In this document: positions 1-12,106 of the stretch, in pieces | How the letters are laid out: each line of letters begins with the position of its first letter | Numbering within the stretch: position 1 is the first letter of the stretch | From: a virus | Lineage: Duplodnaviria > Heunggongvirae > Uroviricota > Caudoviricetes | DNA length: 15,393 nucleotides | Direction: 5' to 3' (one strand) | IMG/VR virus record: IMGVR_UViG_2675903609_000002 | Coordinates: 1-15,393 of that record | Program-made: the position numbers and the translations under genes | Notes under the pieces: generated by a model | The model's input: only the letters and a program-made list of their open reading frames with translations | Told to the model about the DNA's origin: nothing | Database searches by the model: none

Positions 1-93
1 CCGCATAGTGCGCTGGGTTATCGCTCGCCACGGGAATATCTGCGGCAGCGGGCTTGTAATAGGTTAAGTGATAACAGATGTCTGGAAATATAG
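1..93 (+). CDS. insD: IS2 transposase OrfB (InsD), C-terminal 30 codons only; 5' part outside window
   Basis: Frame 1 translates to [30 protein letters not shown], stop TAG at 91-93, which is the InsD C-terminus from memory. Confidence 0.8.
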
Positions 94-104
94 GGGCAAA
101 TCCA
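1..104 (+). mobile_element. IS2, right-end fragment (element continues beyond the window start); terminus at 104
   Basis: Bases 1-104 match the 3' end of IS2 as I remember it, ending in the terminal repeat ...GTGATAACAGATGTCTGGAAATATAGGGGCAAATCCA. The sequence after 104 is unrelated usher coding sequence. Confidence 0.85.
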
Positions 105-1829
105 CCAGCGTTCTAACGGAATACTGAGATTCAAAGAGAGTGCACGGTCATTATTTTCATCAGTGTAGCGGCTGTATTGATAATTCAGGCTGTAACCAAT
201 TCCCCATTGCTGGCCGGAAACCCCAACAGAGATATTACTGTTTTTCTCGTTATTGCCCCAATAGTCTTGCTGTGAACCGGAGGCATACAGACTTACCCCA
301 TCAAATATTGTCTGGCTGATGTTGAATTGAATTTCACTTTTTTGGCGACTGTTATAGCCCCAATTGCGGGTATTGGCTTCATCAAAACTAAAATAGCCAT
401 CGTTGGTATAGCGATAGTAGCTAACAGCGATATTGGTGTTGGTTTCCGGGATATCTTTGATGTACTGAGTACGCCATTGATAGCCATGAAAAGAGTGCTG
501 GTTATCGAATTGGGTGTCAGCTCTGTTGATATCCATCGACAACGCGCCCAGTGCGCCAAGTGTGCCGCCGATACCGATCCCCAGCGCATAATAATCTTCA
601 GAACCGAGCAGGCCGCCATACAGCGTAAAAGTATTATTCAAACCATATATTGCCGTGGCTTCAGCAAATTCGGGTTCCTTGCTATCACTGTTTGCATCAG
701 CGCGATAGCGTCCAGCGGTCGCGCTATATTTTAGATGCCCAGGTCGCTGCATCATGGGTAATGAAGAATAAGGCTGGATAAAGCGACGTTGTGTACCGTC
801 ACTTTCTTCAATCGTGACTTCTAAATCGCCGCTGTTGGAAGAGGGGTAGAGATCGTTAATTTCAAAGGCACCCGCTGGCACGTTGCTTTGATAGATCACA
901 TAACCATTTTGCCTGATAGTCACGATTGCACTACTGTTTGCGATACCGCGTACCGTTGGGGCAAATCCGCGCTGGCTGTTTGGCAACATATTATCGTCGG
1001 AAGCGAGTTGCACGCCAGTAAAGGCGTAGCTGGAAAAAATACTGCCGCTGGTGGCGCTTTCTCCCAGAAGCAACTGAGACTTCAACGCCTTGATATCACG
1101 TTGTAAATAACTACTGATAGTGTTCCAGCTTGACGCCTGATCGTTGCGTGTCCACGTAGAATAGTTACGTAATCGCCAGGGGCCAAAATTAGCACCATTT
1201 TGCATATTCAGGTACTGTCGTTGGCTACGATTGCCCTGGCGGTAACGGTTATCAGAACCTGTAAACGAGTAGTTGGTAAACAGCGTTGGTATACCATCGT
1301 CCCAACGAGAAGGGGAGACGTAACCTCTTGCATCACGGTACAGTGCAATTTGGGGAATGCTCAAATTAAGTCGCTGATGATTGAAATCAAATTCAGCAGC
1401 TGTACCGGGAATGATTTGTTCAAGCGAGTTGATCACGCTATCGTCATCTTTTTCAGCCAGCGCCGGGATTTCATCCACCTTAATACCCAGCTCACGTAGT
1501 TGTTCTACCGTAAACTGTGGCTGCAGAAGTTGCTCTGCATTGGCGGTAAATGTAATTTTTTTCTGTGAAACCTTCTTTTTATTCAGCCAGATATCAACCT
1601 GATAAGTTCCTGGTAGTTGTGCGTATTTTTTTGAAAAACGTGACAGATCGGTTGTTTGCATACCACTTTTTGTAGTTTCCAGCATAATGGGGTCGAAATA
1701 ATACTCTTCGGCGTTAGCGGTAGTGCAAAGCATGCCGCTGCCAGTGAGCACCATCGGCAAACAACGTTTGATAATGAGCGCCAACTGTTTCGGTGTGCGT
1801 TTATGTCCCTGGTGGTGTCGTTGTGGCAT
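105..1829 (-). pseudogene. Fimbrial outer-membrane usher (PapC/FimD family), interrupted by IS2; N-terminal ~575 codons present
   Basis: Minus-strand ORF with signal peptide and usher N-terminal motif (MPQRHH...MVLTGSGMLCTTANAEEYYFDPIMLE...). The frame runs without a stop into the IS2 end at 104, so track ORF 18..1898 is a read-through artefact. Start taken at ATG 1829, 28 nt after the chaperone stop. Confidence 0.8.
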
Positions 1830-1857
1830 TCCCTGATGGCCTGTGTTTTTATATTTT

Positions 1858-2493
1858 TTATTGCAGTGGACGAGTTTCTGTCCCGGAACTGCCGCCATAA
1901 TCGTTGATCGCAGCCCATTTCACGTTCTTTCCGCCAGATGCTGGAAGTGGTAACTGTTTATGTTCTCCGGGCGCGATATATTCAATTTTGCTTGTGAGAT
2001 CGGTTTTATCGACTGCCAGTCCGGCAAATACGACGTAATATTCAGTTGGGTTATATATATTGAGTGAATGGTCACTACGTTTAAATTCCAGTGATTTCCA
2101 CGCATCGTTTACCCGTCCCTTCAGGTGTGCGGGGCGATAAAACATTTTGACCCGCGTTTTAAATACCAGCGTCAACTCGTTAGCATTAACATCATCTGAT
2201 TTTTTCTTTGCTGGAATGGCACGAACATTAATGTAGAACAGCGACTCTTTATTTTCAGGCAGGTTATCAGCTGTTTTAATAATTCGCAGTGATGAGTCAT
2301 CGCCAGCCTCAAGACGAAATAGCGGTGGGGTTATAATAAATGGGGCACGGCTTTTACCATCTATATTATCTACCCATGATTGCAGTAAATAAGGCGTTTC
2401 TGCGCCTTTGTTTGCGACAGGTAACGCAGCCTCTTTGCGGCTGGCATCATAGATCACTCGCGTTCGCTGTAAAACGATACCCCCTGCAGACAT
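1858..2493 (-). pseudogene. Fimbrial periplasmic chaperone (PapD/FimC family), 5'-truncated with no signal peptide
   Basis: Translation has chaperone hallmarks ([14 protein letters not shown]..., ...YLLQSWVDN...[13 protein letters not shown]...). The ORF begins at the mature-protein position, with an in-frame TAG (2494-2496) directly upstream and no signal peptide in any frame. Confidence 0.7.
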
Positions 2494-2562
2494 CTACTTG
2501 AAGCGGCAGGGGATTGATTGGAATGGTGTTTTTTAGATGTGAGAAATATTTTACCCGCTATT

Positions 2563-2763
2563 TTACCCATTGGCGCGGCTTAAGAGCTTATTTTTGAATT
2601 CACAATGGTCACGATATAACCATCTTGCTCGACCGTGGATAACTTTGGCTTTAGGCAGGTCGCCGGACTTAATCCGGTCGTAGATGAAGGTTTTACCAAA
2701 GCCAGTATCAGCCATGATGAATTTCAAATCAACCAGTGAATCAGGTTGTAGTTCGTGTTGCAT
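2563..2763 (-). CDS. AlpA/excisionase-family small DNA-binding protein (Xis-like), 66 aa
   Basis: SD GGAG 9 nt upstream of ATG 2763. Sequence ...DLKFIMADTGFGKTFIYDRIKSGDLPKAKVIHGRARW... resembles phage AlpA/Xis HTH proteins. It is the last gene of the leftward operon, where lambdoid xis sits. Confidence 0.55.
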   Translation of the reverse strand: MQHELQPDSLVDLKFIMADTGFGKTFIYDRIKSGDLPKAKVIHGRARWLYRDHCEFKNKLLSRANG

Positions 2764-2804
2764 GAGTGCTATCTCCGAATAGGGAATCGAACCTGCAAAT
2801 CAGG

Positions 2805-2830
2805 CAATAAAAAACCGCCATCAGGCGGCT
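2805..2830 (-). terminator. Intrinsic terminator candidate after the zinc-ribbon gene
   Basis: Minus-strand RNA AGCCGCC-UGAU-GGCGGUU followed by a U-rich tail (UUUUUUAUU). Confidence 0.45.
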
Positions 2831-2894
2831 TGGTGTTCTTTCAGTTCTTCAATTCGAATATTGGTTACATTGTTTTCATATATGAATAAATAAA

Positions 2895-3074
2895 TTAGCT
2901 TTTTTCGTTGCCTTCGCGTTCTTTATTAATTTTGACAAAATCGTTTTTACCACGCTCTCCAAATGCGTCTTTAGAGTCGTTGTATCCGCAATCGCAGCAC
3001 ACATAATCATCAGACCATCCACGCATTGTTTTTTCTTTTGCAATATTTCCAGAACCGCATTTTGGACAAGACAT
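2895..3074 (-). CDS. Small zinc-ribbon protein, 59 aa (CPKC...CCDC)
   Basis: SD GGAGG 7 nt upstream of ATG 3074. Translation MSCPKCGSGNIAKEKTMRGWSDDYVCCDCGYNDSKDAFGERGKNDFVKINKEREGNEKS has two Cys pairs. Confidence 0.55.
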   Translation of the reverse strand: MSCPKCGSGNIAKEKTMRGWSDDYVCCDCGYNDSKDAFGERGKNDFVKINKEREGNEKS

Positions 3075-3170
3075 ATCACTACCTCCAAAGCATGAGTGAG
3101 ATGACAACGTAACATTGATTGGAGATTAACAATAGATTGCTGATGTAAAAGATATGTATAAGCTTCGCTT

Positions 3171-4055
3171 TCAAAGTGGAGGCTCTGGTAGTGGCATCCA
3201 GTGGGTTACATTGCTAATCAGACCATATTCATTAGTTTGAGGATGGTTGCCGTTATCGTCTCCGTATTTAAGACTCTCCATAAAACCATAATGCTTATTC
3301 CCATTAACGCTCACAAAGCCGTAATAAGCTGGTATAACGCCGATCTCACACGTAATCAGCAAAGGAAAACTAGTTCTCCAATTTAGCTCGCCGATTACAG
3401 GCATTCTCTCACTACAGCTTATCCAACTATCCTGAGTTACCGGAGAGTTGCGCATTGCGACCTTTAATGCCTCATAGAAGCAACCTTTCAGATTGTTGAA
3501 CTGACGCCCATTTAGCAGGCCGTGTTCAGTCAGCATGTTGTGTAATTTCCATGCCGCGTCGTTTACTTCGCTGGATGACAGGGGAGGCAACTTGTAAGTT
3601 TGGCTTACAGTTTCGGCACCATGAAGCATGGCGTCGCTCCGCTCTATGCCATCCAGCGCGATTCGCAGTGCCTGAATTGTGGTAGAGCTATCGTTTGGGG
3701 CTATTCCATATCGCTCGAATACAGCTAAATGGTTGCGCATAATCTCAGGCGTAAGCTCTTTGTAAGCATAAGCAAGAGGCTCTGATGCATTATCCGGCAC
3801 AACCGACGCAGGCGCGGCAGCATAAACAGGAATAACGTCCGCTTGCTCTTTATTGCTTTCATCCGTTAAAGCCCAGAATAATTTCCCGGCAGGATGTTTG
3901 AAAATATAAGCAACTGGTTCTGCTTCCAGCGATGCCAGAGCAATTCGTGCCAGTTCTTCCGCTTCTTCTGCTGGCAGTTCAACGTTGCTACCAGGTCCGT
4001 ATGTTTCGCGCCACTGCTTGATTGTCAGTAGTCGCTCTTTGGTCATAGTGGTCAT
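3171..4055 (-). CDS. Phage early protein, 294 aa, C-terminal region resembling DUF551 (...THWMPLPEPPL)
   Basis: SD AAGGAG 7 nt upstream of ATG 4055, 1 nt after the upstream stop. Long ORF in the operon orientation. The DUF551 assignment is from motif memory only. Confidence 0.6.
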   Translation of the reverse strand: MTTMTKERLLTIKQWRETYGPGSNVELPAEEAEELARIALASLEAEPVAYIFKHPAGKLFWALTDESNKEQADVIPVYAAAPASVVPDNASEPLAYAYKELTPEIMRNHLAVFERYGIAPNDSSTTIQALRIALDGIERSDAMLHGAETVSQTYKLPPLSSSEVNDAAWKLHNMLTEHGLLNGRQFNNLKGCFYEALKVAMRNSPVTQDSWISCSERMPVIGELNWRTSFPLLITCEIGVIPAYYGFVSVNGNKHYGFMESLKYGDDNGNHPQTNEYGLISNVTHWMPLPEPPL

Positions 4056-4056
4056 A

Positions 4057-4785
4057 TCACTCTCCTTTGATGCGAAAGCCAGCTGCGCTTGCTGATTCTT
4101 CATATGCGCGTTTAGCAGCGTTAAGGATTGCTGCCAGTGGCGTATAGCCGCCATCCATTCGGATTGTGTTGTGGATGCCAGCCATTGTGTTGCGCAATTT
4201 TCTGTGGCTAGCAGACAGTTCTGCTATGCGCTTCTCTGCGGCTTCCAGCTTCTCGCGCATATCGTCAACGTACTCGACCAGAGAACCGCCAGCAGGAATT
4301 TCGCACTCCTCGACCAGTTGGAAGTAGATATCAGCTGCGGCCCGTGTGTTGCTATGCCTAGCGTCGCCCATCTCACCTTCACGAAGAGCATCGCGTTCGG
4401 CGGTAAGATTGGCTATTTTGCTGTCTTTGCCTTCCAGCTCAACGCGCAGCTTCCCTACCGTTAGCGCAATTTCCTCGTTCTCCTGATCGCGGCGTTTTAT
4501 GTATTGCTGGTTTCTTTCCAGCTCATCCAGCAGTGCCAGCACGGTAGCTGGACTGGCTGCGGCGATGAATTCAGCATTGGCCTGCTGTTCCATTTGGAAA
4601 TCTTCATCGAAACCGCTTTCAGGATGCGCTCCTTCAATTCTGCAAATGGGAATATATCCAGCAGCCTCGCGATGAATTAGGGCATCATCACCATCAAATC
4701 GGCTCTCTCCATATTCGAGCGACCACTCACCACACGTTGCTTTCTCTGCCTTGGCACGCAGTGCCTGATAGTCAATCTTGCTCAC
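4057..4785 (-). CDS. Ea22/Ead-like phage protein with central coiled coil, 242 aa, GTG start
   Basis: Strong SD AAAGGAGG 7 nt upstream of GTG 4785. The upstream part of track ORF 4057..4977 overlaps the Lar-like gene in another frame and is discounted. Confidence 0.55.
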   Translation of the reverse strand: MSKIDYQALRAKAEKATCGEWSLEYGESRFDGDDALIHREAAGYIPICRIEGAHPESGFDEDFQMEQQANAEFIAAASPATVLALLDELERNQQYIKRRDQENEEIALTVGKLRVELEGKDSKIANLTAERDALREGEMGDARHSNTRAAADIYFQLVEECEIPAGGSLVEYVDDMREKLEAAEKRIAELSASHRKLRNTMAGIHNTIRMDGGYTPLAAILNAAKRAYEESASAAGFRIKGE

Positions 4786-5005
4786 TGTTTGCCTCCTTTG
4801 CTCGCTGATTCCACTCTGCTCTAACCTCTGAATAAAAAATCGCGCAGTCATTTCCAGGCGCTGCATATTTGCTACCAGATTGAGCGCGACACGTACCGCA
4901 TCGAACGAAATAGAATCGACCGCCAGAGCCATATTCAGGGTGATCTGCTTCGCTGGCAACGTGCGCTGCACCGCCACAGAATGGACATGGTAGTAGGTTG
5001 CTCAT
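4772..5005 (-). CDS. Lar-family restriction-alleviation-type zinc-finger protein, 77 aa
   Basis: [16 protein letters not shown]...FVRCGTCRA... has the CPFCGG / CxxC pattern of Lar-family proteins. SD AAGGGAG upstream; its ATG overlaps the upstream stop as ATGA. Confidence 0.6.
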   Translation of the reverse strand: MSNLLPCPFCGGAAHVASEADHPEYGSGGRFYFVRCGTCRAQSGSKYAAPGNDCAIFYSEVRAEWNQRAKEANSEQD

Positions 5006-5562
5006 GAATGCACTCCCTTGTGAAGCTGTTCCGCACAATGCAGCAGGGCGTCAGTCGCCTCTTTCACCGTAACGCAGTCGCCATCGTCCAGCCCGGACAC
5101 CGACGCGTGCTTAACGAACGCCGCGCAAAGGTCATCAAACGCCTTAGCCCGGACTTCAGTCAGGAAAGCATCGGTGGCTGGGGTGTCTGATTGCATAGAC
5201 TTTGCGCGATAGTCATTCCACCCTCTTGCATACATGGGATTAACTTGCACTCCATCTTTTACGCAATATGCCTGCCCTCCACGGTTGATAACCTTGATTT
5301 CGTCCATAGCGCCAGACTTCAGCCCCGCATTCTCCGCTGCCAGTGCCGAAAACTTCTCGTGTGCCAACTTAACAGCCGAATCAGCCTGCTTAATTGACTC
5401 AATCGCTTTCTGTTGGTCTTCGGCCAGCGCCAAAATCTTGGCCTCCGCTTCAGCAAATTTACGCACCAGATATTCAGCGTTTGTTTCGTTAACATTTAAA
5501 TCTCGTGGGATGCATTTACCTTTCAGAAAACCATCCATCTCAATTAGTGACATTTGTTTCAT
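5002..5562 (-). CDS. Hypothetical phage protein, 186 aa
   Basis: ATG 5562 overlaps the stop of the upstream small ORF (ATGA). SD-like GGAG upstream. Helical N-terminal half, no motif I recognise. Confidence 0.55.
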
Positions 5563-5723
5563 TTCTTCCCACTCCGCCACATCGCATTCAGATATTTGTT
5601 TTGATTCACTGATGGAAACGAGTTTCGCTTAAGCAATTCCTCTCTCGATGGCATTGGCTTTACGCGTTGGCGAATAATCATTTCTGCCGGAAGAATGCCG
5701 GGATTGTATGCAAGTCCTCTCAT
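5559..5723 (-). CDS. Hypothetical small protein, 54 aa
   Basis: SD GAGGA 7 nt upstream of ATG 5723. Stop overlaps the downstream start (ATGA). Longer in-frame starts at 5756 and 5741 lack an SD. Confidence 0.4.
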
Positions 5724-5733
5724 GGTAAATTCC

Positions 5734-6030
5734 TCAGTCATTACTGATAGCGCCATAGCGTGATCGATAATTACGCAGACGCGGGTCGATATATTCAGGG
5801 AAGTGGGTATATGTGGCTTTGCGGAATGGTCGGATTGATGTCTGGTAAATTCGCTCGCGTTCTTCTTTCTCTGCAAGCCATATACAGTGGCGAAATTCCT
5901 TTTCCTCTTTCGTTTCCTGCGGTAGCGACATTATCCGATCGTAGTTTTTTCTGAATTTATCCAGCACCTCCGATACGGAATTGCCGGAACAGCGGCGCGG
6001 GTCATCCGCACCATACAGAGGCGCTGGCAT
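5734..6030 (-). CDS. Hypothetical phage protein, 98 aa
   Basis: SD AGGAGA 5 nt upstream of ATG 6030, 14 nt after the exonuclease stop. Confidence 0.55.
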
Positions 6031-6046
6031 GTTTTTCTCCTGTTGA

Positions 6047-6595
6047 TTATTTAGCTAACTTTTTCCAGATCGCTGAAACGTATTTGGCTTGGTGAATGGC
6101 ATCATCAAGAGCGTTGTGGCGAGTTCCTTTGAATGGCATATCTCGCTTAGGGTCGAATCCTATTGCCTTCCCAAGTTCGACGATTGTTCTTACGTCGCGG
6201 TCATTCCACCACTGCCACGGAACTGGCTGCCCTGTCAGCGAATAACTGTTGCGGAGAATAACGCAGTCAAATGATGCTCCATTCCCCCAAACCTGAACGA
6301 ATTTGTGGTTAGCGTTCTTTATGATGAATTCAGATAACCATGAAAGAGCCGTTGAAAGCTCCTGAGTGTTGCTGGTTAGCGATTTCCTGGCTTCTTCACT
6401 CTGTTCCAGCCACCATAAAATCGTTGAAGCGTCAGGACGCGCTCGATATCGCATTGATGATTCAAGCGAGATATTTACCGAGAACTCTTCTCCTGTTTCT
6501 CCGGTATTCGGGTCAAAGAATACCGCCCCAATAGAAATAACTGGCGCGTATGGCCCGTTGCCCATTGTTTCAAGGTCAACCATCAAGTGATTCAT
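6047..6595 (-). CDS. DnaQ-like (DEDD) 3'-5' exonuclease, 182 aa
   Basis: Exo motifs MVDLETMG (I), WGNGASFD (II) and HNALDDAIHQA (III). SD AAGGA upstream. Confidence 0.8.
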   Translation of the reverse strand: MNHLMVDLETMGNGPYAPVISIGAVFFDPNTGETGEEFSVNISLESSMRYRARPDASTILWWLEQSEEARKSLTSNTQELSTALSWLSEFIIKNANHKFVQVWGNGASFDCVILRNSYSLTGQPVPWQWWNDRDVRTIVELGKAIGFDPKRDMPFKGTRHNALDDAIHQAKYVSAIWKKLAK

Positions 6596-6603
6596 GTAAG
6601 TCC

Positions 6604-7119
6604 TTAAATTGCGTGAATAGCGTGACGAGGGAAGGGGAGAGTTACTGGTGCAAAGGGGATATCGTCGTCAAAATCCATAGGTGGTTCGCTGTGATTTCCC
6701 TGCTGCTGAGGTTGCTGTCTTTGTTGCTGACCATTATTTCGCTGAGGTGAAGACTGTTCATTGCCTCCTTGCTTGCCACCAAGCATTTGCATGGTTCCAC
6801 CAACGCCCACGATGACTTCGGTAGTGAACCGATCCTGTCCGCTTTGATCCTGCCATTTTCTTGTCCGCAATTTGCCTTCAAGATAAACCTCAGAGCCTTT
6901 TCGCAGATATTCGCTGGCAATTTCTGCCAGTTTCCCGCTCATTACCACGCGGTGCCACTCCGTCTGCTCCTTTTGCTCTCCAGTTTTCTTATCACGCCAT
7001 TGTTCTGACGTAGCAACGGTAAGGTTTGCAAATGCCGTTCCTGATGGTGAATATCTGATTTCTGGATCATGCCCAAGGCGACCAATAATGATCACCTTAT
7101 TTACGCCTCTGCTTGCCAT
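6604..7119 (-). CDS. ssb: Single-stranded DNA-binding protein (SSB), 171 aa, with a 15-aa extension after the DDDIPF tip
   Basis: [16 protein letters not shown]... OB fold, Gly/Gln-rich linker, then ...[11 protein letters not shown] followed by [15 protein letters not shown] before the stop. Confidence 0.9.
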
Positions 7120-7827
7120 TTATGCCGCCTGTTTTAGTTCGTTAACTCTGATGTTCATTACCTGAACGCATTTAGCCTGCGCCTCCTCGTTGCCAGCCAT
7201 TAATTGCCAGTCACGCTGATAACGCTCGATGAGTTTTTTCTTGTCAGTTTCTGTTGACGCATAATCGCTGAAGTCTTTCAGGATTTGTTCGCAGTCAACC
7301 GATGGAGATTTCTGGTTGGTATTTTCTGGTGATGGTTTGTTATCTGATGCTGGGATTGCCCATCCCGGCAGCGATGGAGGGAGCCAGTAAAATCCTGTTC
7401 CATCCTTGAGTTTTGCCCTGTGCCATCCCTGCTTTTTATCGAGAGATGTTTGTGCAAAACCTTCCTCAAGGTTATACAGATACCGACCGATCCCCCACTG
7501 AACGGCAGCGCGCTTCATTGCACCGGAACGACCACCTTTGACGGCTTCTACCTGCGTGTTTTCAGCAGCATCCCATTTGGTTACCCATTCGGAATCAATC
7601 CTGATTGATATGCCGCATTCAACGCCTCCGTTGTTGGGAATATCGCGGTATTCATTGCGCCATCCTGCTTTGCCGCAAACATCGTCCAGGCGTTTCATGA
7701 TTGCCCGGTTCGTGACATAAGCCAGCACCATAGCCCACACTTTGCCATCGCGTGTTTTACCGCTTTGCTGTATTCGCCATTCGATATCTTCAGGGCTGAA
7801 TGGCTTATCGAATTTATTCAAATCCAT
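7120..7827 (-). CDS. Rad52/Rad22-family single-strand annealing protein (Sak-like), 235 aa
   Basis: ...AYVTNRAIMKRLDDVCGKAGWRNEY...GGVECGISIRI... fits the Rad52 N-domain pattern. Directly upstream of ssb (stop abuts the ssb ATG); SD GAGGTGA upstream. Confidence 0.65.
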   Translation of the reverse strand: MDLNKFDKPFSPEDIEWRIQQSGKTRDGKVWAMVLAYVTNRAIMKRLDDVCGKAGWRNEYRDIPNNGGVECGISIRIDSEWVTKWDAAENTQVEAVKGGRSGAMKRAAVQWGIGRYLYNLEEGFAQTSLDKKQGWHRAKLKDGTGFYWLPPSLPGWAIPASDNKPSPENTNQKSPSVDCEQILKDFSDYASTETDKKKLIERYQRDWQLMAGNEEAQAKCVQVMNIRVNELKQAA

Positions 7828-7926
7828 AATTCACCTCAGAATGGACATGGCCCAAGGAAATAACGCTGGTTTAATACTTCGACTCTGGACAAATTAAGGC
7901 ATACCCGCATTCCTTCGCGGTCACCA

Positions 7927-8085
7927 TTATGGCGATACCAGAGAGCTTTCTGCGTGTACATGCGTCTCTGTAACTTGCTCTCCTTCACTGTGGTTGCAAG
8001 TGACATGAATATCTCCTTCGTTACCGATTAATTCTTTCATATGACGAATGAATTCTTCGTCTGACCAGTTATCTGTAAAACTCAT
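7927..8085 (-). CDS. Hypothetical small protein, 52 aa
   Basis: ATG 8085 overlaps the Kil-like stop as ATGA. No SD of its own; an internal ATG at 8040 is an alternative start. Confidence 0.3.
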   Translation of the reverse strand: MSFTDNWSDEEFIRHMKELIGNEGDIHVTCNHSEGEQVTETHVHAESSLVSP

Positions 8086-8234
8086 TTCCTGCGACACCAC
8101 GGAAGGTTGATAGCTGATTTCATCGCTTTATTTGCTTCAAGCCACATTTTTGAATCACCAATAAATCTGGCTATTACTGCTTTGTTCTGTGCAGCACGAA
8201 GCATCTGATGATTTATGGCTATTTCATTGCGCAT
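8082..8234 (-). CDS. Kil-like small protein, 50 aa (not in ORF track, under 60 aa)
   Basis: MRNEIAINHQMLRAAQNKAVIARFIGDSKMWLEANKAMKS... resembles the ...FIGDEKM... core of lambda Kil / Rac KilR from memory. Lies immediately downstream of cIII as in lambda. Confidence 0.5.
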   Translation of the reverse strand: MRNEIAINHQMLRAAQNKAVIARFIGDSKMWLEANKAMKSAINLPWCRRK

Positions 8235-8350
8235 AATAAGACCTCAACTCTTTTCCATCCGTCACGTAATTTACGGGTGATTCGTTCAAGTAAAGATTCA
8301 TTTAGTTGGAAGGCACCCATGCGAGCGCCTCCCGCGATTGCGTAAATCAT
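8219..8350 (-). CDS. cIII: cIII-like protease inhibitor, 43 aa (not in ORF track)
   Basis: MIYAIAGGARMGAFQLNESLLERITRKLRDGWKRVEVLLCAMK. The core ESLLERITRKLRDGWKR matches lambda cIII as I recall it. SD AAGGA 7 nt upstream. Confidence 0.8.
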   Translation of the reverse strand: MIYAIAGGARMGAFQLNESLLERITRKLRDGWKRVEVLLCAMK

Positions 8351-8374: not shown

Positions 8375-9343
8375 TTAGTAGGTTATTTTTGTTGCGAATA
8401 CTTCGCCTTTTACGATGGCTGTTATGATATTTTTAGCAACATCTTCTGATGCACCAACCTTGATAAGGTCAGCAAGTATTTTGTTATTTACTTCTTTCCG
8501 GTGAGCTTTATCCTTTGCTCTACGCTCTTCTTCTTCCTTGATTCTTTTTTCTTCTGCTATTCTGGCTTGCTCTTTTGCTTCAGCATCGCGACGGATTCGT
8601 TCAGCCTCCTCCTGTGCTTTTCTGCGTTCTGCTTCAATTGCTGCCTGCTTTTCTCTTTCAGCTCGTTCTGCTGCCTCTTTTGCTTCGCGCTGTGCTCGCT
8701 GCTCGGCTTCAATGCGTTCACGCTCTGCACGTTCCGCTGCGGCCTTAGCTTCTGCTTCTCGCCTTGCTGCTGCTTCAATTTCGGCTTTTGCCTTTGCTTC
8801 GGCTTCTGCTCTGGCTTTCTCTTCAGCTTCTCTTTTTAAGCGTTCTTCATGCTCTCGCTTTTCCTGCTCCGCTTTGAGTCTTGCCTCTTCTCTTTGGCGG
8901 TCAAATTCGCGATCCATCAAAATAGCTATTTCATGGTCAGACTCAATTTGCTTTGCGAGAGCTTCAGCTGCTGCCTTAGCTTCTTCTTCGGCTTTAATCC
9001 GCGCCTGTTCTTCCTCATAATCAGTAAGAGGCTGGCGCGCCTTGGCTTTCAGTTCATCAAGGCGATCGCGCACTGTCTTGCGGTTAGCATCAATTAGCTT
9101 TGGAATTTCCTTCAGTTCAGCAACAAGGTCTTTGCCAAGACCATCGAGATATGTTTTCGTCTGCGCAACTTTATACGCCAGAGAAGCGATCTCCTTTCTG
9201 CCCTTTGCCGTTGTGATATCAGGCACAAAGGACATAACTTCACGTTCAACCTTTTGAAGGATTTCTTCAATCTGGTCGGCAGACTGAAATACAGTCATTG
9301 CATTTGCTTTTTCAATAACAACTAAATCTGTTACTTCACTCAT
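8375..9343 (-). CDS. Hypothetical early protein, 322 aa: N-terminal ~120-aa domain, ~170-aa Ala/Glu/Lys/Arg-rich coiled-coil region, short C-terminal domain
   Basis: SD GGAGGA 5 nt upstream of ATG 9343. Long ORF in operon orientation. The central region is low-complexity at DNA level. Confidence 0.7.
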   Translation of the reverse strand: MSEVTDLVVIEKANAMTVFQSADQIEEILQKVEREVMSFVPDITTAKGRKEIASLAYKVAQTKTYLDGLGKDLVAELKEIPKLIDANRKTVRDRLDELKAKARQPLTDYEEEQARIKAEEEAKAAAEALAKQIESDHEIAILMDREFDRQREEARLKAEQEKREHEERLKREAEEKARAEAEAKAKAEIEAAARREAEAKAAAERAERERIEAEQRAQREAKEAAERAEREKQAAIEAERRKAQEEAERIRRDAEAKEQARIAEEKRIKEEEERRAKDKAHRKEVNNKILADLIKVGASEDVAKNIITAIVKGEVFATKITY

Positions 9344-9355
9344 ATATCCTCCGTC

Positions 9356-9384
9356 AAAAAAATTGCCCTCACACTGGAGGGCAA
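9356..9384 (-). terminator. Intrinsic terminator immediately upstream of the 322-aa gene
   Basis: Minus-strand RNA UUGCCCUC-CAGUGU-GAGGGCAA followed by U7; the gene's SD starts 5 nt later. Confidence 0.6.
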
Positions 9385-9500
9385 AGAAGATTTCCAATAA
9401 TCAGAACAAGTCGGCTCCTGTTTAGTTACGAGCGACATTGCTCCGTGTATTCACTCGTTGGAATGAATACACAGTGCAGTGTTTATTCTGTTGTTTATGC

Positions 9501-9528
9501 CAAAAATAAAGGCCACCGTCAGGCAGCC
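9501..9528 (-). terminator. Intrinsic terminator candidate overlapping the ral stop codon
   Basis: Minus-strand RNA GGCUGCC-UGAC-GGUGGCC (two G.U pairs) followed by UUUAUUUUU. Confidence 0.45.
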
Positions 9529-9719
9529 TTGTTGTTCAGTTTACCAAGTTCTCTGGCAATCATTGCCGTCGTTCGTATTGCCCATTTATCGACATATTTC
9601 CCATCTTCCATTACAGGAAACATTTCTTCAGGCTTAACCATGCATTCCGATTGCAGCTTGCATCCATTGCATCGCTTGAATTGTCCACACCATTGATTTT
9701 TATCAATGGTCGTAGTCAT
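9519..9719 (-). CDS. ral: Ral restriction-alleviation protein, 66 aa
   Basis: MTTTIDKNQWCGQFKRCNGCKLQSECMVKPEEMFPVMEDGKYVDKWAIRTTAMIARELGK... matches lambda Ral almost residue-for-residue from memory. Confidence 0.9.
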   Translation of the reverse strand: MTTTIDKNQWCGQFKRCNGCKLQSECMVKPEEMFPVMEDGKYVDKWAIRTTAMIARELGKLNNKAA

Positions 9720-9797: not shown

Positions 9798-10124
9798 TCA
9801 AATAAGTGGTTTGCTGCCTAATTTCATTTTCTGGCGACCAACACAAGTCACACCCATTTCACTGCGTGGCTTGCTGTACCATGTGCGCTGATTCTTGCGC
9901 TCAATACGCTGCAGGTTGCTTTCAATCTGTTCGTGGTATTCAGCCAGCACCGTAAGGTCTATCGGATTCAGTGCGCTTTCTACTCGTGATTTCGGTTTGC
10001 GATTCAGCGAGAGAATAGGGCGGTTAACTGGTTTTGCGCTTACCCCAACCAACAGGGGATTTGCTGCTTTCCATTGAGCCTGTTTCTCTGCGCGACGTTC
10101 GCGGCGGCGTGTTTGAGAGTCCAT
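9798..10124 (-). CDS. N: Antitermination protein N, 108 aa
   Basis: MDSQTRRRERRAEKQAQWKAANPLLVGVSAKPVNRPILSLNRKPKSRVESALNPIDLTVLAEYH... is near-identical to lambda N (Arg-rich motif intact), differing mainly in the C-terminal ~20 aa. Confidence 0.95.
   Translation of the reverse strand: MDSQTRRRERRAEKQAQWKAANPLLVGVSAKPVNRPILSLNRKPKSRVESALNPIDLTVLAEYHEQIESNLQRIERKNQRTWYSKPRSEMGVTCVGRQKMKLGSKPLI

Positions 10125-10753: not shown

Positions 10754-12106
<1,353 letters not shown>

Follow-up and report, generated by a model that had tools for sequence, protein, structure and literature searches.

A putative P22/epsilon34-type recombination module with Abc2 and an optional DexA-like exonuclease in the PL operon of a lambdoid prophage

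Organization of the module

The window, i.e. the whole stretch of 15,393 nucleotides that was analysed, carries on the minus strand of positions 5734–8100 a group of genes which, judged from sequence comparisons, is a homologous-recombination (Rec) module of the P22/epsilon34 type in the early-left (PL) operon of a lambdoid prophage (Table 1). The module consists of two small ORFs in the position of P22 arf, followed by the genes for a Sak/Rad52-type annealing protein (annealase), a single-strand binding protein (SSB), a DEDDh exonuclease of the DexA family and the anti-RecBCD protein Abc2, with intergenic gaps of only 0–16 nt. The ORFs for annealase, SSB and exonuclease had already been proposed in the initial annotation, and all three were confirmed on the minus strand with unchanged coordinates. 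The scores by which the three proteins match their families (see below) greatly exceed what chance would give.

The module is located between kil/cIII and the ea/xis region. The markers kil and cIII, which were identified by profile matches and by the annotation of homologous loci, show that it occupies the position in which lambda carries the red genes gam-bet-exo. Profile searches with all ORFs of the PL operon detected no member of the Gam, Bet or lambda-Exo (YqaJ-type 5'-3' exonuclease) families, which agrees with the earlier assumption that these proteins are absent.

Table 1. Genes of the recombination module and its neighbourhood in the window
Feature	Position	Strand	Product	Family or profile
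abc2	5734–6030	-	98 aa, putative anti-RecBCD (RecBCD-hijacking) protein; part of the module, outside the region of the initial annotation	PF11043, phrog_656
DEDDh 3'-5' exonuclease (predicted)	6047–6595	-	182 aa, DexA/Rv2179c-like family	PF16473
SSB, bacterial type	6604–7119	-	171 aa	PF00436, TIGR00621
Sak/Rad52-type single-strand annealing protein (predicted)	7120–7827	-	235 aa, three parts	PF04098, phrog_1097
Small basic ORF in P22 arf position	7836–8006	-	56 aa	phrog_1723
Small acidic ORF in arf position	7927–8100	-	57 aa, overlaps the ORF at 7836–8006	phrog_2123
kil	8082–8234	-		PF06301 Lambda_Kil (1.7e-20)
cIII	8219–8350	-		phrog_550 CIII (1.6e-20)

The annealing protein

The assignment of the 235-aa protein to the Rad52/Sak family is supported by three kinds of comparison. 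It matched the Rad52_Rad22 profile PF04098 (E=3.9e-26; 92.2 bits, cutoff 20.3) and phrog_1097 (1e-129), and its residues 6–159 showed 58.7% identity (E=7e-55) to the annealing domain of Sak from Lactococcus phage ul36, the experimentally characterized prototype of the phage Rad52 homologues. In addition, the top 16 PDB matches obtained with Foldseek for an AlphaFold2 model (pLDDT 81) were all Mgm101/RAD52 structures (probability up to 1.0), so that a Rad52-like N-terminal fold, as in ul36 Sak, is predicted for this protein. The C-terminal domain differs from that of ul36 Sak. To our knowledge, no Abc2 occurs in the context of the ul36 gene.

Three parts of the protein can be distinguished: the N-terminal annealing domain (residues 1–155; 7363–7827), a disordered linker (residues 162–176) and a C-terminal three-helix domain (residues 179–234; about 7126–7293), which is common to Erf of phage P22. 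Residues 157–235, i.e. the last 79 of the protein, share 63% identity with residues 134–205 of Erf. When modelled alone, the C-terminal domain gave a confident three-helix bundle (pLDDT 94). A PDB fold search with this domain alone returned nothing significant (best E=1.9), and a specific likeness to the C-terminal domain of Red-beta or to a known partner-binding module could not be demonstrated. In a protein database, the last 86 residues matched nothing but fragments of the same annealase, and tblastn of the phage collection with the C-terminal domain yielded 119 records, in which the N-terminal domains are either Sak-type or Erf-type. By these sequence relationships the annealase is a domain chimera of a Sak-type N-terminal and an Erf-type C-terminal domain. 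As a peculiarity of the window, residue 8 is a lysine, while all other annealases that were compared possess a glutamate at this position.

The SSB and the ORFs in the arf position

The assumption that the phage encodes its own SSB held true; the protein has an OB-fold SSB domain (PF00436, 3.7e-38) and was also recognized by TIGR00621 (3.8e-54; 183 bits, cutoff 54). Its acidic tip DFDDDIPF comprises residues 149–156, and the matches to the SSB profiles of NCBIfam all stop at residue 156. The motif DDDIPF is not located at the very C-terminus with a free terminal phenylalanine; it is followed by an extension of 15 residues (encoded at 6607–6651), as is typical of modules that lack the HNH gene.

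Of the two small ORFs, the basic one (phrog_1723, 9.4e-36; labelled 'recombinase' in PHROGs) is kept upstream of the annealase gene in most related loci and showed no similarity to P22 Arf in a pairwise comparison. The acidic one (phrog_2123, 1.2e-40; pI 4.5) shares with Arf only a 7-residue SDEEFI motif (pairwise BLASTP, 6/7 identities, E=0.014). With nothing but this motif in common and with different PHROGs, the two ORFs were rejected as Arf homologues.

Abc2 and RecBCD

The statement of the initial annotation that no RecBCD inhibitor is recognizable proved to be wrong. The gene directly downstream of the exonuclease gene encodes Abc2 (PF11043, E=4.3e-62, 206.8 bits; also phrog_656), which is 92.9% identical to Abc2 of P22 over the full length of 98 aa and in which Pro68 is conserved. 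The gene was found in all 74 related loci with enough downstream sequence. Abc2 of P22 binds RecC, abolishes the response to Chi and is thought to hijack the host RecBCD (Wilkinson 2022, PMC9836394); phages with Abc2 use RecBCD in place of an exonuclease of their own (Wilkinson 2022, PMC9836394; Hutinet 2018). By analogy, Abc2 of this phage most likely binds RecC and hijacks RecBCD as well. Therefore, a module with Abc2 is to be read as a RecBCD hijacker in the manner of P22 and not as the supplier of its own exonuclease. That a RecBCD modifier does belong to the module is the correction which makes this analysis useful.

The exonuclease

The 182-aa protein had been described as a DEDD-type 3'-5' enzyme and not a nuclease of the lambda-Exo type, and the profile match and catalytic residues speak for this classification. 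It was aligned to the Rv2179c-like profile PF16473 over the complete 177 positions (1–177; E=6.9e-74, 247.8 bits), and the five DEDDh residues D7, E9, D110, H160 and D165 are present. D7, E9 and D110 align to D7, E9 and D119 of exonuclease A (DexA) of phage T4, whose structure (PDB 8KEL) was matched with E=1.5e-13. A search of NCBIfam gave no match. The 3'-5' polarity is that expected for the family, and the substrates considered below are putative. The exonuclease family occurs in 1858 phage records, compared to 180 for the annealase family.

A promoter consensus search for the exonuclease gene gave 3 matches, whereas 5.8 were expected from shuffled sequence, and an own promoter was rejected for this reason. 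Because no independent promoter signal above chance was found and the genes are tightly packed, the exonuclease is most probably co-expressed with the PL operon.

The exonuclease gene is an optional cassette. In a junction comparison with phage HK75, the cassette (roughly 6044–6603) fits exactly between the stop codon of ssb and the ribosome-binding site of abc2. Among 74 IMG/VR loci with an annealase at least 99% identical and at least 2 kb of downstream sequence, four architectures were found, namely ssb-abc2 (37 loci), ssb-exo-abc2 (18), ssb-HNH-abc2 (17) and ssb-HNH-exo-abc2 (2). Thus, the exonuclease is present in 20 of the 74 loci; this share of 27%, compared to 100% for abc2, is only a rough frequency, because the IMG/VR loci do not represent phylogenetically independent cases. 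The commonest annealase allele was seen in all four architectures, both with and without the exonuclease. Phages that have been isolated vary in the same way: no nuclease is encoded in HK75, ECP1 and N7, whereas Sf6 possesses only the HNH gene and CurroJimenez possesses both.

Comparison with known systems

The same module is present in known phages. The DNA of the module is about 92% identical to that of mEp235 and mEpX2 (mEp235, 91.8% across 2.4 kb, with annealase and exonuclease proteins each 99% identical) and 86% identical to that of the Salmonella phage epsilon34 (genes 33–36); gene order and the four functions are the same in all of them. Differences of substance from these three phages were not detected; the SSB of the window is the 171-aa rather than the 168-aa variant. 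The module was described in the epsilon34 genome paper of 2008, in which the pairing of annealase and exonuclease was called unusual (PMC2629481). The initial annotation, which had made the same remark, asked whether the exonuclease might be the functional partner of the annealase; the evidence points to an optional cassette and not to an obligate partner. Zheng, Casjens et al. [quoted passage not shown]

The module of P22 (arf-erf-abc1-abc2) occupies the same operon position, and a common logic, in which RecBCD is hijacked for resection and a phage annealase is loaded, is suggested for both. In comparison to P22, the window has a Sak/Rad52-type domain in place of the N-terminal annealing domain of Erf and additionally encodes the SSB and the DEDDh exonuclease. 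Of the characteristics of the P22 Rec module (Erf annealing domain, Abc1, Arf) none was found: the N-terminal domain is Sak-type, abc1 is absent, and the ORFs in the arf position are unrelated and belong to other PHROGs.

Lambda Red has the same operon position and the same presumed purpose, RecA-independent annealing recombination together with control of RecBCD, but none of its three proteins has a homologue at family level in the window. RecBCD would be modified and not blocked, and a 5'-3' exonuclease is lacking in the window.

DEDDh catalytic residues are common to the window exonuclease, T4 DexA and the Rv2179c family of Mycobacterium tuberculosis. In comparison to DexA, the window exonuclease is about 30% identical, possesses neither the extra loops nor the tetramer contacts S87/D90, and is encoded by a PL-operon gene of a temperate phage, whereas dexA is an early gene of T-even phages.

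Proposed function of the module

These relationships make it likely that RecBCD modified by Abc2 acts as the resection nuclease, and that the exonuclease is an accessory add-on to a P22/epsilon34-type module. Upon induction or infection, Abc2 would bind RecC, by homology with P22, and turn the host RecBCD into a Chi-blind helicase and 5'-strand nuclease that produces 3' single-stranded DNA. The phage SSB would coat this DNA, and the Rad52-like domain of the annealase would anneal it to complementary single strands, while the Erf-type three-helix domain probably contacts partners. The exonuclease would not be a partner in resection. Its task is most likely similar to that of DexA, i.e. the removal of 3' single-stranded ends and oligonucleotides, by which degradation products might be cleared or recycled and 3' tails trimmed. 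This activity may modulate recombination and would not be needed for it.

A less probable explanation is that the Rad52-like annealase and the exonuclease really work together as partners, so that modules with the exonuclease recombine better or differently; we consider this unlikely. After annealing, non-homologous 3' flaps could be removed so that the 3' end primes synthesis, comparable to single-strand annealing by eukaryotic Rad52, or the enzyme could generate 5'-tailed single-stranded substrates. The gene is packed tightly within the module, and T4 DexA participates in the repair of double-strand breaks in the course of intron homing (PMC12153337). Two further observations also count against a merely accessory role: exonuclease orthologues with at least 90% identity are essentially confined to Sak-SSB-Abc2 modules, and Zheng et al. 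(2025) treat the DnaQ gene of epsilon34 as a legitimate member of the Rec module (PMC12315714). On the other hand, the exonuclease is missing from 73% of the modules with the same annealase allele, and according to Zheng et al., who cite Lovett 2011, the usual effect of DnaQ-type 3'-5' exonucleases on recombination is inhibition and not promotion. The individually selected Sak relatives that were examined in Yersinia phage 21.09, Vibrio phage D59, Paenibacillus phage SV21 and Rhizobium phage RHEph18 are not accompanied by any DEDD exonuclease. Conversely, phages without any Rec module and without an annealase, such as LLS (PMC12315714), mEp460 and Serratia phage OS31, encode next to xis/int exonuclease homologues that are about 60% identical, and P22 encodes Erf with the same C-terminal domain as the annealase, yet no such exonuclease. 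A pairing of the exonuclease with another annealase family was rejected, too; the two loci without Sak upstream of the exonuclease are deletion remnants.

An independent neighbourhood of this kind was observed in Vibrio phage 1.112.O, where the gene for a different, PolB-exo-like DEDD 3'-5' exonuclease (PF10108) immediately precedes, on its upstream side, that for a Rad52-like annealase; this is a hint that such pairings recur. This gene pair and the part which T4 DexA plays in the break repair associated with homing are also hints that the exonuclease might be a true, selectable component of recombination, which trims 3' flaps or 3' tails together with the annealase and is perhaps recruited via the extended tail of the SSB or the Erf-type C-terminal domain. 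We regard this more specific proposal as rather unlikely. If true, it would define a phage annealing pathway in which a 3'-5' nuclease works alongside hijacked RecBCD.

It is very unlikely that the exonuclease serves as an HREX-like weapon against competing phages, which degrades 5hmC-modified DNA of T-even phages like EcD, a DexA homologue of E. coli, and is located in the Rec module only incidentally. E. coli cells with EcD on a plasmid were protected from T4, and a protein nearly identical to the window exonuclease (WP_001016185.1) is included in the homologue list of the same study (Kang et al. 2025, Table S3). Furthermore, the window exonuclease possesses W130, the equivalent of W152 in DexA, and lacks the tetramerization residue D90. 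However, EcD, rebuilt from the primers of that paper, is a different protein (189 aa, starting with MIDTET, A78) which is only 37% identical and is encoded beside a Dam methylase in a P2-like prophage and not in a Rec module. A lysogen should also not express the exonuclease, because its gene is located far inside the PL operon, which is repressed, and has no promoter signal above chance, and PADLOC gave only a weak, generic DEDDh match (1.9e-4).

It is extremely unlikely that the prophage is decaying and the module merely a remnant without any function in this genome: although the left end of the prophage abuts host fimbrial genes, the window contains a TorI-like excisionase and no integrase, and no E. 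coli genome matched the whole window in one piece, all ORFs of the module are intact and their proteins are 98–99.5% identical to those of the plaque-forming phages mEp235, Sf6 and CurroJimenez_Bas106, the same intactness applies to N, cIII, kil, O and the immunity region, and int and xis can occupy opposite ends in related prophages.

Prevalence and significance

The module is already known; it has appeared in genome papers since 2004–2008 and was classified in 2025. As a discovery it matters little, as it is common and catalogued. Whether annealing recombination is promoted, impaired or left unaffected by the DnaQ/DexA-type exonuclease of temperate-phage Rec modules could matter for recombineering toolkits based on Sak-type annealases. 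Each of the module proteins belongs to a cluster of 1000–1500 database sequences, and of 5426 complete E. coli genomes, 140 contain the full module.

Gene content of the recombination module

The gene content and order of the recombination module, its arrangement and the family memberships of its products are compiled in the table. Between positions 6047 and 7827 exactly three ORFs were found, all on the minus strand. Residues 6-159 of the annealase share 58.7% identical amino acids with Sak of Lactococcus phage ul36, and the 16 best PDB matches of its AlphaFold2 model (pLDDT 81) were Mgm101 and RAD52 only. The exonuclease possesses the DEDDh residues (D7, E9, D110, H160, D165) and matches T4 DexA in the sequence of crystal structure 8KEL (E=1.5e-13). 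No homologue of Gam, Bet or lambda-Exo was detected anywhere in the PL operon. The initial annotation, made from the sequence alone, had proposed these three genes as a Rad52/Sak-type annealase, an own SSB and a DEDD-type 3'-5' exonuclease, with Gam, Bet and lambda-Exo absent, and in all these points it was borne out. The module genes are packed with gaps of 0-16 nt, a co-transcription geometry, and no promoter signal above chance was found within the module.

Codon 8 of the annealase gene (7804-7806) encodes Lys in the window, a private substitution; this position is Glu in all 147 related loci examined (Ala in two alleles). The exact annealase sequence carries Shigella flexneri as source in the databases.

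Features of the window and of compared loci (window positions unless another locus is named)
Feature	Position	Strand	Description
Host DNA	18-2493		left end of window; fimbrial usher ORF and PapD-type chaperone
TorI-like excisionase	2563-2763		last in PL operon; prophage start near 2481-2560
Lar-like restriction-alleviation/zinc-ribbon ORFs	4772-5038, 2895-3107		PL operon
Abc2	5734-6030	minus	P22 anti-RecBCD protein; PF11043, E=4.3e-62; phrog_656
Exonuclease	6047-6595	minus	182 aa; Rv2179c-like 3'-5' exonuclease, PF16473 end to end, E=6.9e-74
SSB	6604-7119	minus	171 aa; bacterial-type, PF00436, E=3.7e-38
Annealase	7120-7827	minus	235 aa; Rad52_Rad22, PF04098, E=3.9e-26
340-aa protein	8375-9397		between cIII and ral; phrog_1376, annotated elsewhere as "TolA-like"
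Ral	9519-9719		PL operon; PF11058, E=2e-48
N	9798-10124		follows cI-type repressor
158-aa ORF	10754-11230		directly downstream of and overlapping cI repressor gene
cI-type repressor	11155-11787		start of PL operon order
Sf6 locus	1825-2787		HNH insertion in ssb
LLS	3493-5314		60%-identical exonuclease beside excisionase
mEp460	1681-5391		60%-identical exonuclease beside excisionase
Vibrio phage 1.112.O	2279-3543		240-aa PolB-exo-like DEDD 3'-5' exonuclease, PF10108, E=3e-11; overlaps start of Rad52-like annealase
EcD, P2-like prophage	6404-6970		DexA homologue

The same annotation had recognised no RecBCD inhibitor, which was wrong: the exonuclease gene is directly followed, 16 nt downstream, by the gene for Abc2, with 92.9% identity to P22 Abc2 over the full length and with Pro68, the residue engaging host PpiB, retained. 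With Abc2 present, the module has to be interpreted differently. The protein binds RecC next to the region recognising Chi and was proposed to hijack RecBCD, the host enzyme then performing resection and delivering ssDNA to the annealase of the phage; characteristically, phages that carry Abc2 encode no 5'-3' exonuclease themselves (Wilkinson et al. 2022, PMC9836394; Hutinet et al. 2018, PMC5928155).

The module is already known and belongs to a catalogued class. The 2.4 kb from 5700 to 8100 show 91.8% identity to coliphages mEp235 and mEpX2 and 86% to Salmonella phages epsilon34 and g341c; all four share the gene order of the module. At least 80% of this stretch is carried by 140 of 5426 complete E. 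coli genomes. Annealase, SSB and exonuclease each belong to a cluster that counts 1000-1500 database sequences at 90% identity. In the epsilon34 genome paper (2008), genes 33-36 were described as Abc2, a possible nuclease called "unusual in this context", SSB and an Erf-like protein named Erf only for its C-terminal residues; the authors also refer to Erf "domain swaps" as a subject discussed before (PMC2629481). Zheng, Casjens, Davidson, Amundsen and Smith (2025) sorted 246 lambdoid Rec modules into classes (PMC12315714). The supposedly unusual pairing of annealase and exonuclease is present, but it is already known, as an option within a module class that has been catalogued.

The exonuclease as an optional cassette

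Several independent lines say that the exonuclease is optional rather than the obligate partner of the annealase. In phages with annealases of 97-99.6% identity, the interval between ssb and abc2 is empty (HK75, ECP1, N7) or holds an HNH endonuclease gene (Sf6), the exonuclease gene (mEp235, mEpX2) or both (CurroJimenez_Bas106); the exonuclease also occurs in epsilon34 (annealase ~92% identical). Among 74 IMG/VR loci with an annealase at least 99% identical and enough downstream sequence, the architecture was ssb-abc2 in 37, ssb-exo-abc2 in 18, ssb-HNH-abc2 in 17 and ssb-HNH-exo-abc2 in two. Abc2 is encoded in 100% of them and the exonuclease in 27%, a rough frequency, given the lack of phylogenetic independence between the loci. 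The most frequent annealase allele was found with all four architectures; hence no annealase variant goes with the exonuclease.

The cassette boundaries are clean. In HK75, ...CAATTTAA with the ssb stop is directly followed by TCAGGAGAAAAACATG with the RBS and start of abc2, whereas in the window ...CAATTTAA is followed by GGACTTACATG and, beyond the exonuclease gene, by TAAATAA and TCAACAGGAGAAAAACATG.

Furthermore, lambdoid phages that lack any Rec module carry exonuclease homologues of ~60% identity beside xis/int, often accompanied by a dNMP phosphatase and DUF2303. LLS, described as encoding no Rec proteins (Zheng et al., PMC12315714), shows this most clearly, and the homologues of mEp460 and Serratia OS31 are placed likewise. 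The linear-plasmid prophage PY54 carries a homologue with no annealase nearby, and the exonuclease family including T4 DexA occurs in 1858 phage records versus 180 for the annealase family. In LLS and mEp460, exonuclease, deoxyribonucleoside 5'-monophosphate phosphatase and DUF2303 protein share an operon, a hint that this exonuclease family may be linked with nucleotide metabolism.

Domain structure of annealase and SSB

The annealase is a chimera of a Sak/Rad52-type N-terminus and an Erf-type C-terminus. Residues 157-235 (7123-7360) show 63% identity to residues 134-205 of P22 Erf, while N-terminally the two proteins differ in domain family (Sak/Rad52-type in the window, Erf-type in P22). 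In the model, residues 1-155 form a Rad52-like domain and residues 179-234 a three-helix bundle, with a disordered linker (162-176) between them; modelled alone, the bundle reached a pLDDT of 94, and no solved structure matched it significantly. The same C-terminal domain (CTD) was found in 119 phage records, joined to Sak-type or Erf-type cores; the Erf/Sak domain swap was noted earlier in the epsilon34 and Sf6 genome papers (epsilon34: PMC2629481). Since the CTD is common to P22, which possesses Abc2 but neither SSB nor exonuclease, its partner should be common to both systems, and we infer Abc2-RecBCD, host SSB or another host factor as candidates rather than the exonuclease.

The SSB carries 15 extra residues (157-171; 6604-6651) after the canonical ...DFDDDIPF tip, which leaves no free terminal Phe, an arrangement that is the norm among about 120 related loci. 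Modules of the Sf6 type have the HNH endonuclease gene inserted immediately behind the IPF codon: their SSB terminates precisely at ...DIPF, and the 14-residue tail displaced from it closes the HNH ORF. This resembles the insertion of a homing endonuclease gene into the 3' end of ssb.

Putative function of the exonuclease

Following the work on P22, Abc2 would convert RecBCD into a Chi-blind resection machine, the phage SSB would coat the ssDNA from resection, and the Sak-type protein would anneal the coated ssDNA. By its family, the exonuclease may be a DexA-like 3'-5' DNA exonuclease removing 3' ssDNA ends and oligonucleotides; T4 DexA is documented to scavenge host DNA and to process ends in intron homing (PMC12153337). 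It is probable that resection is based on RecBCD/Abc2 and, at the same time, that the exonuclease is accessory.

Exonuclease orthologues of at least 90% identity are confined to the module, apart from two exceptions that are deletion remnants, and Vibrio phage 1.112.O has a different DEDD exonuclease directly upstream of its Rad52-like gene. This would fit a true recombination partner, e.g. a 3'-flap trimmer, but four other distant Sak relatives examined have no DEDD-exonuclease neighbour, and such a role is rather unlikely. The Vibrio phage offers another case of a DEDD nuclease gene beside a Rad52-like gene, with a nuclease that is not orthologous.

An HREX-like nuclease directed against modified-DNA phages is improbable to a still higher degree. 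EcD, an E. coli DexA homologue, protects against T4, and the homologue table of the same study lists WP_001016185.1, the near-identical protein of a sister prophage (Kang et al. 2025). However, EcD, rebuilt from the primers of that study, is only 37% identical to the window exonuclease and sits in a P2-like prophage, which ruled out that both are the same protein; moreover, the window gene lies in a repressed operon. That the module is an inert remnant is very unlikely, as every gene is intact and has a near-identical counterpart in plaque-forming phages.

EcD is encoded in the early operon of its prophage together with a cox-like gene, a ParE-like gene and a Dam methylase gene, with a divergent repressor and an integrase. 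As WP_001016185.1 also belongs to a prophage, a lambdoid one, the DexA homologues called "bacterial" are at least in part encoded by prophages.

Prophage layout and neighbouring genes

The module lies in the early-left (PL) operon, on the minus strand, of a lambdoid prophage. N is followed by ral, cIII, kil, ea-type genes and the TorI-like excisionase gene, beyond which host fimbrial chaperone and usher genes were found, with no integrase in between. The usher ORF matches only profile positions 1-377 of 549, has no C-terminal domain match and is therefore probably truncated. With Ral and two Lar-like ORFs, several anti-restriction functions are present within one PL operon.

The 340-aa protein is extremely charged (rich in Glu, Lys, Arg and Ala), has no Pfam match and is kept in Sf6 (gp33) and relatives; the strongest AT skew of the window coincides with its gene. 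The 158-aa ORF, for which nothing was found in Pfam, PADLOC or NCBIfam, has a signal-peptide-like N-terminus and occupies the position of lysogen-expressed morons, e.g. rexAB or sieB.
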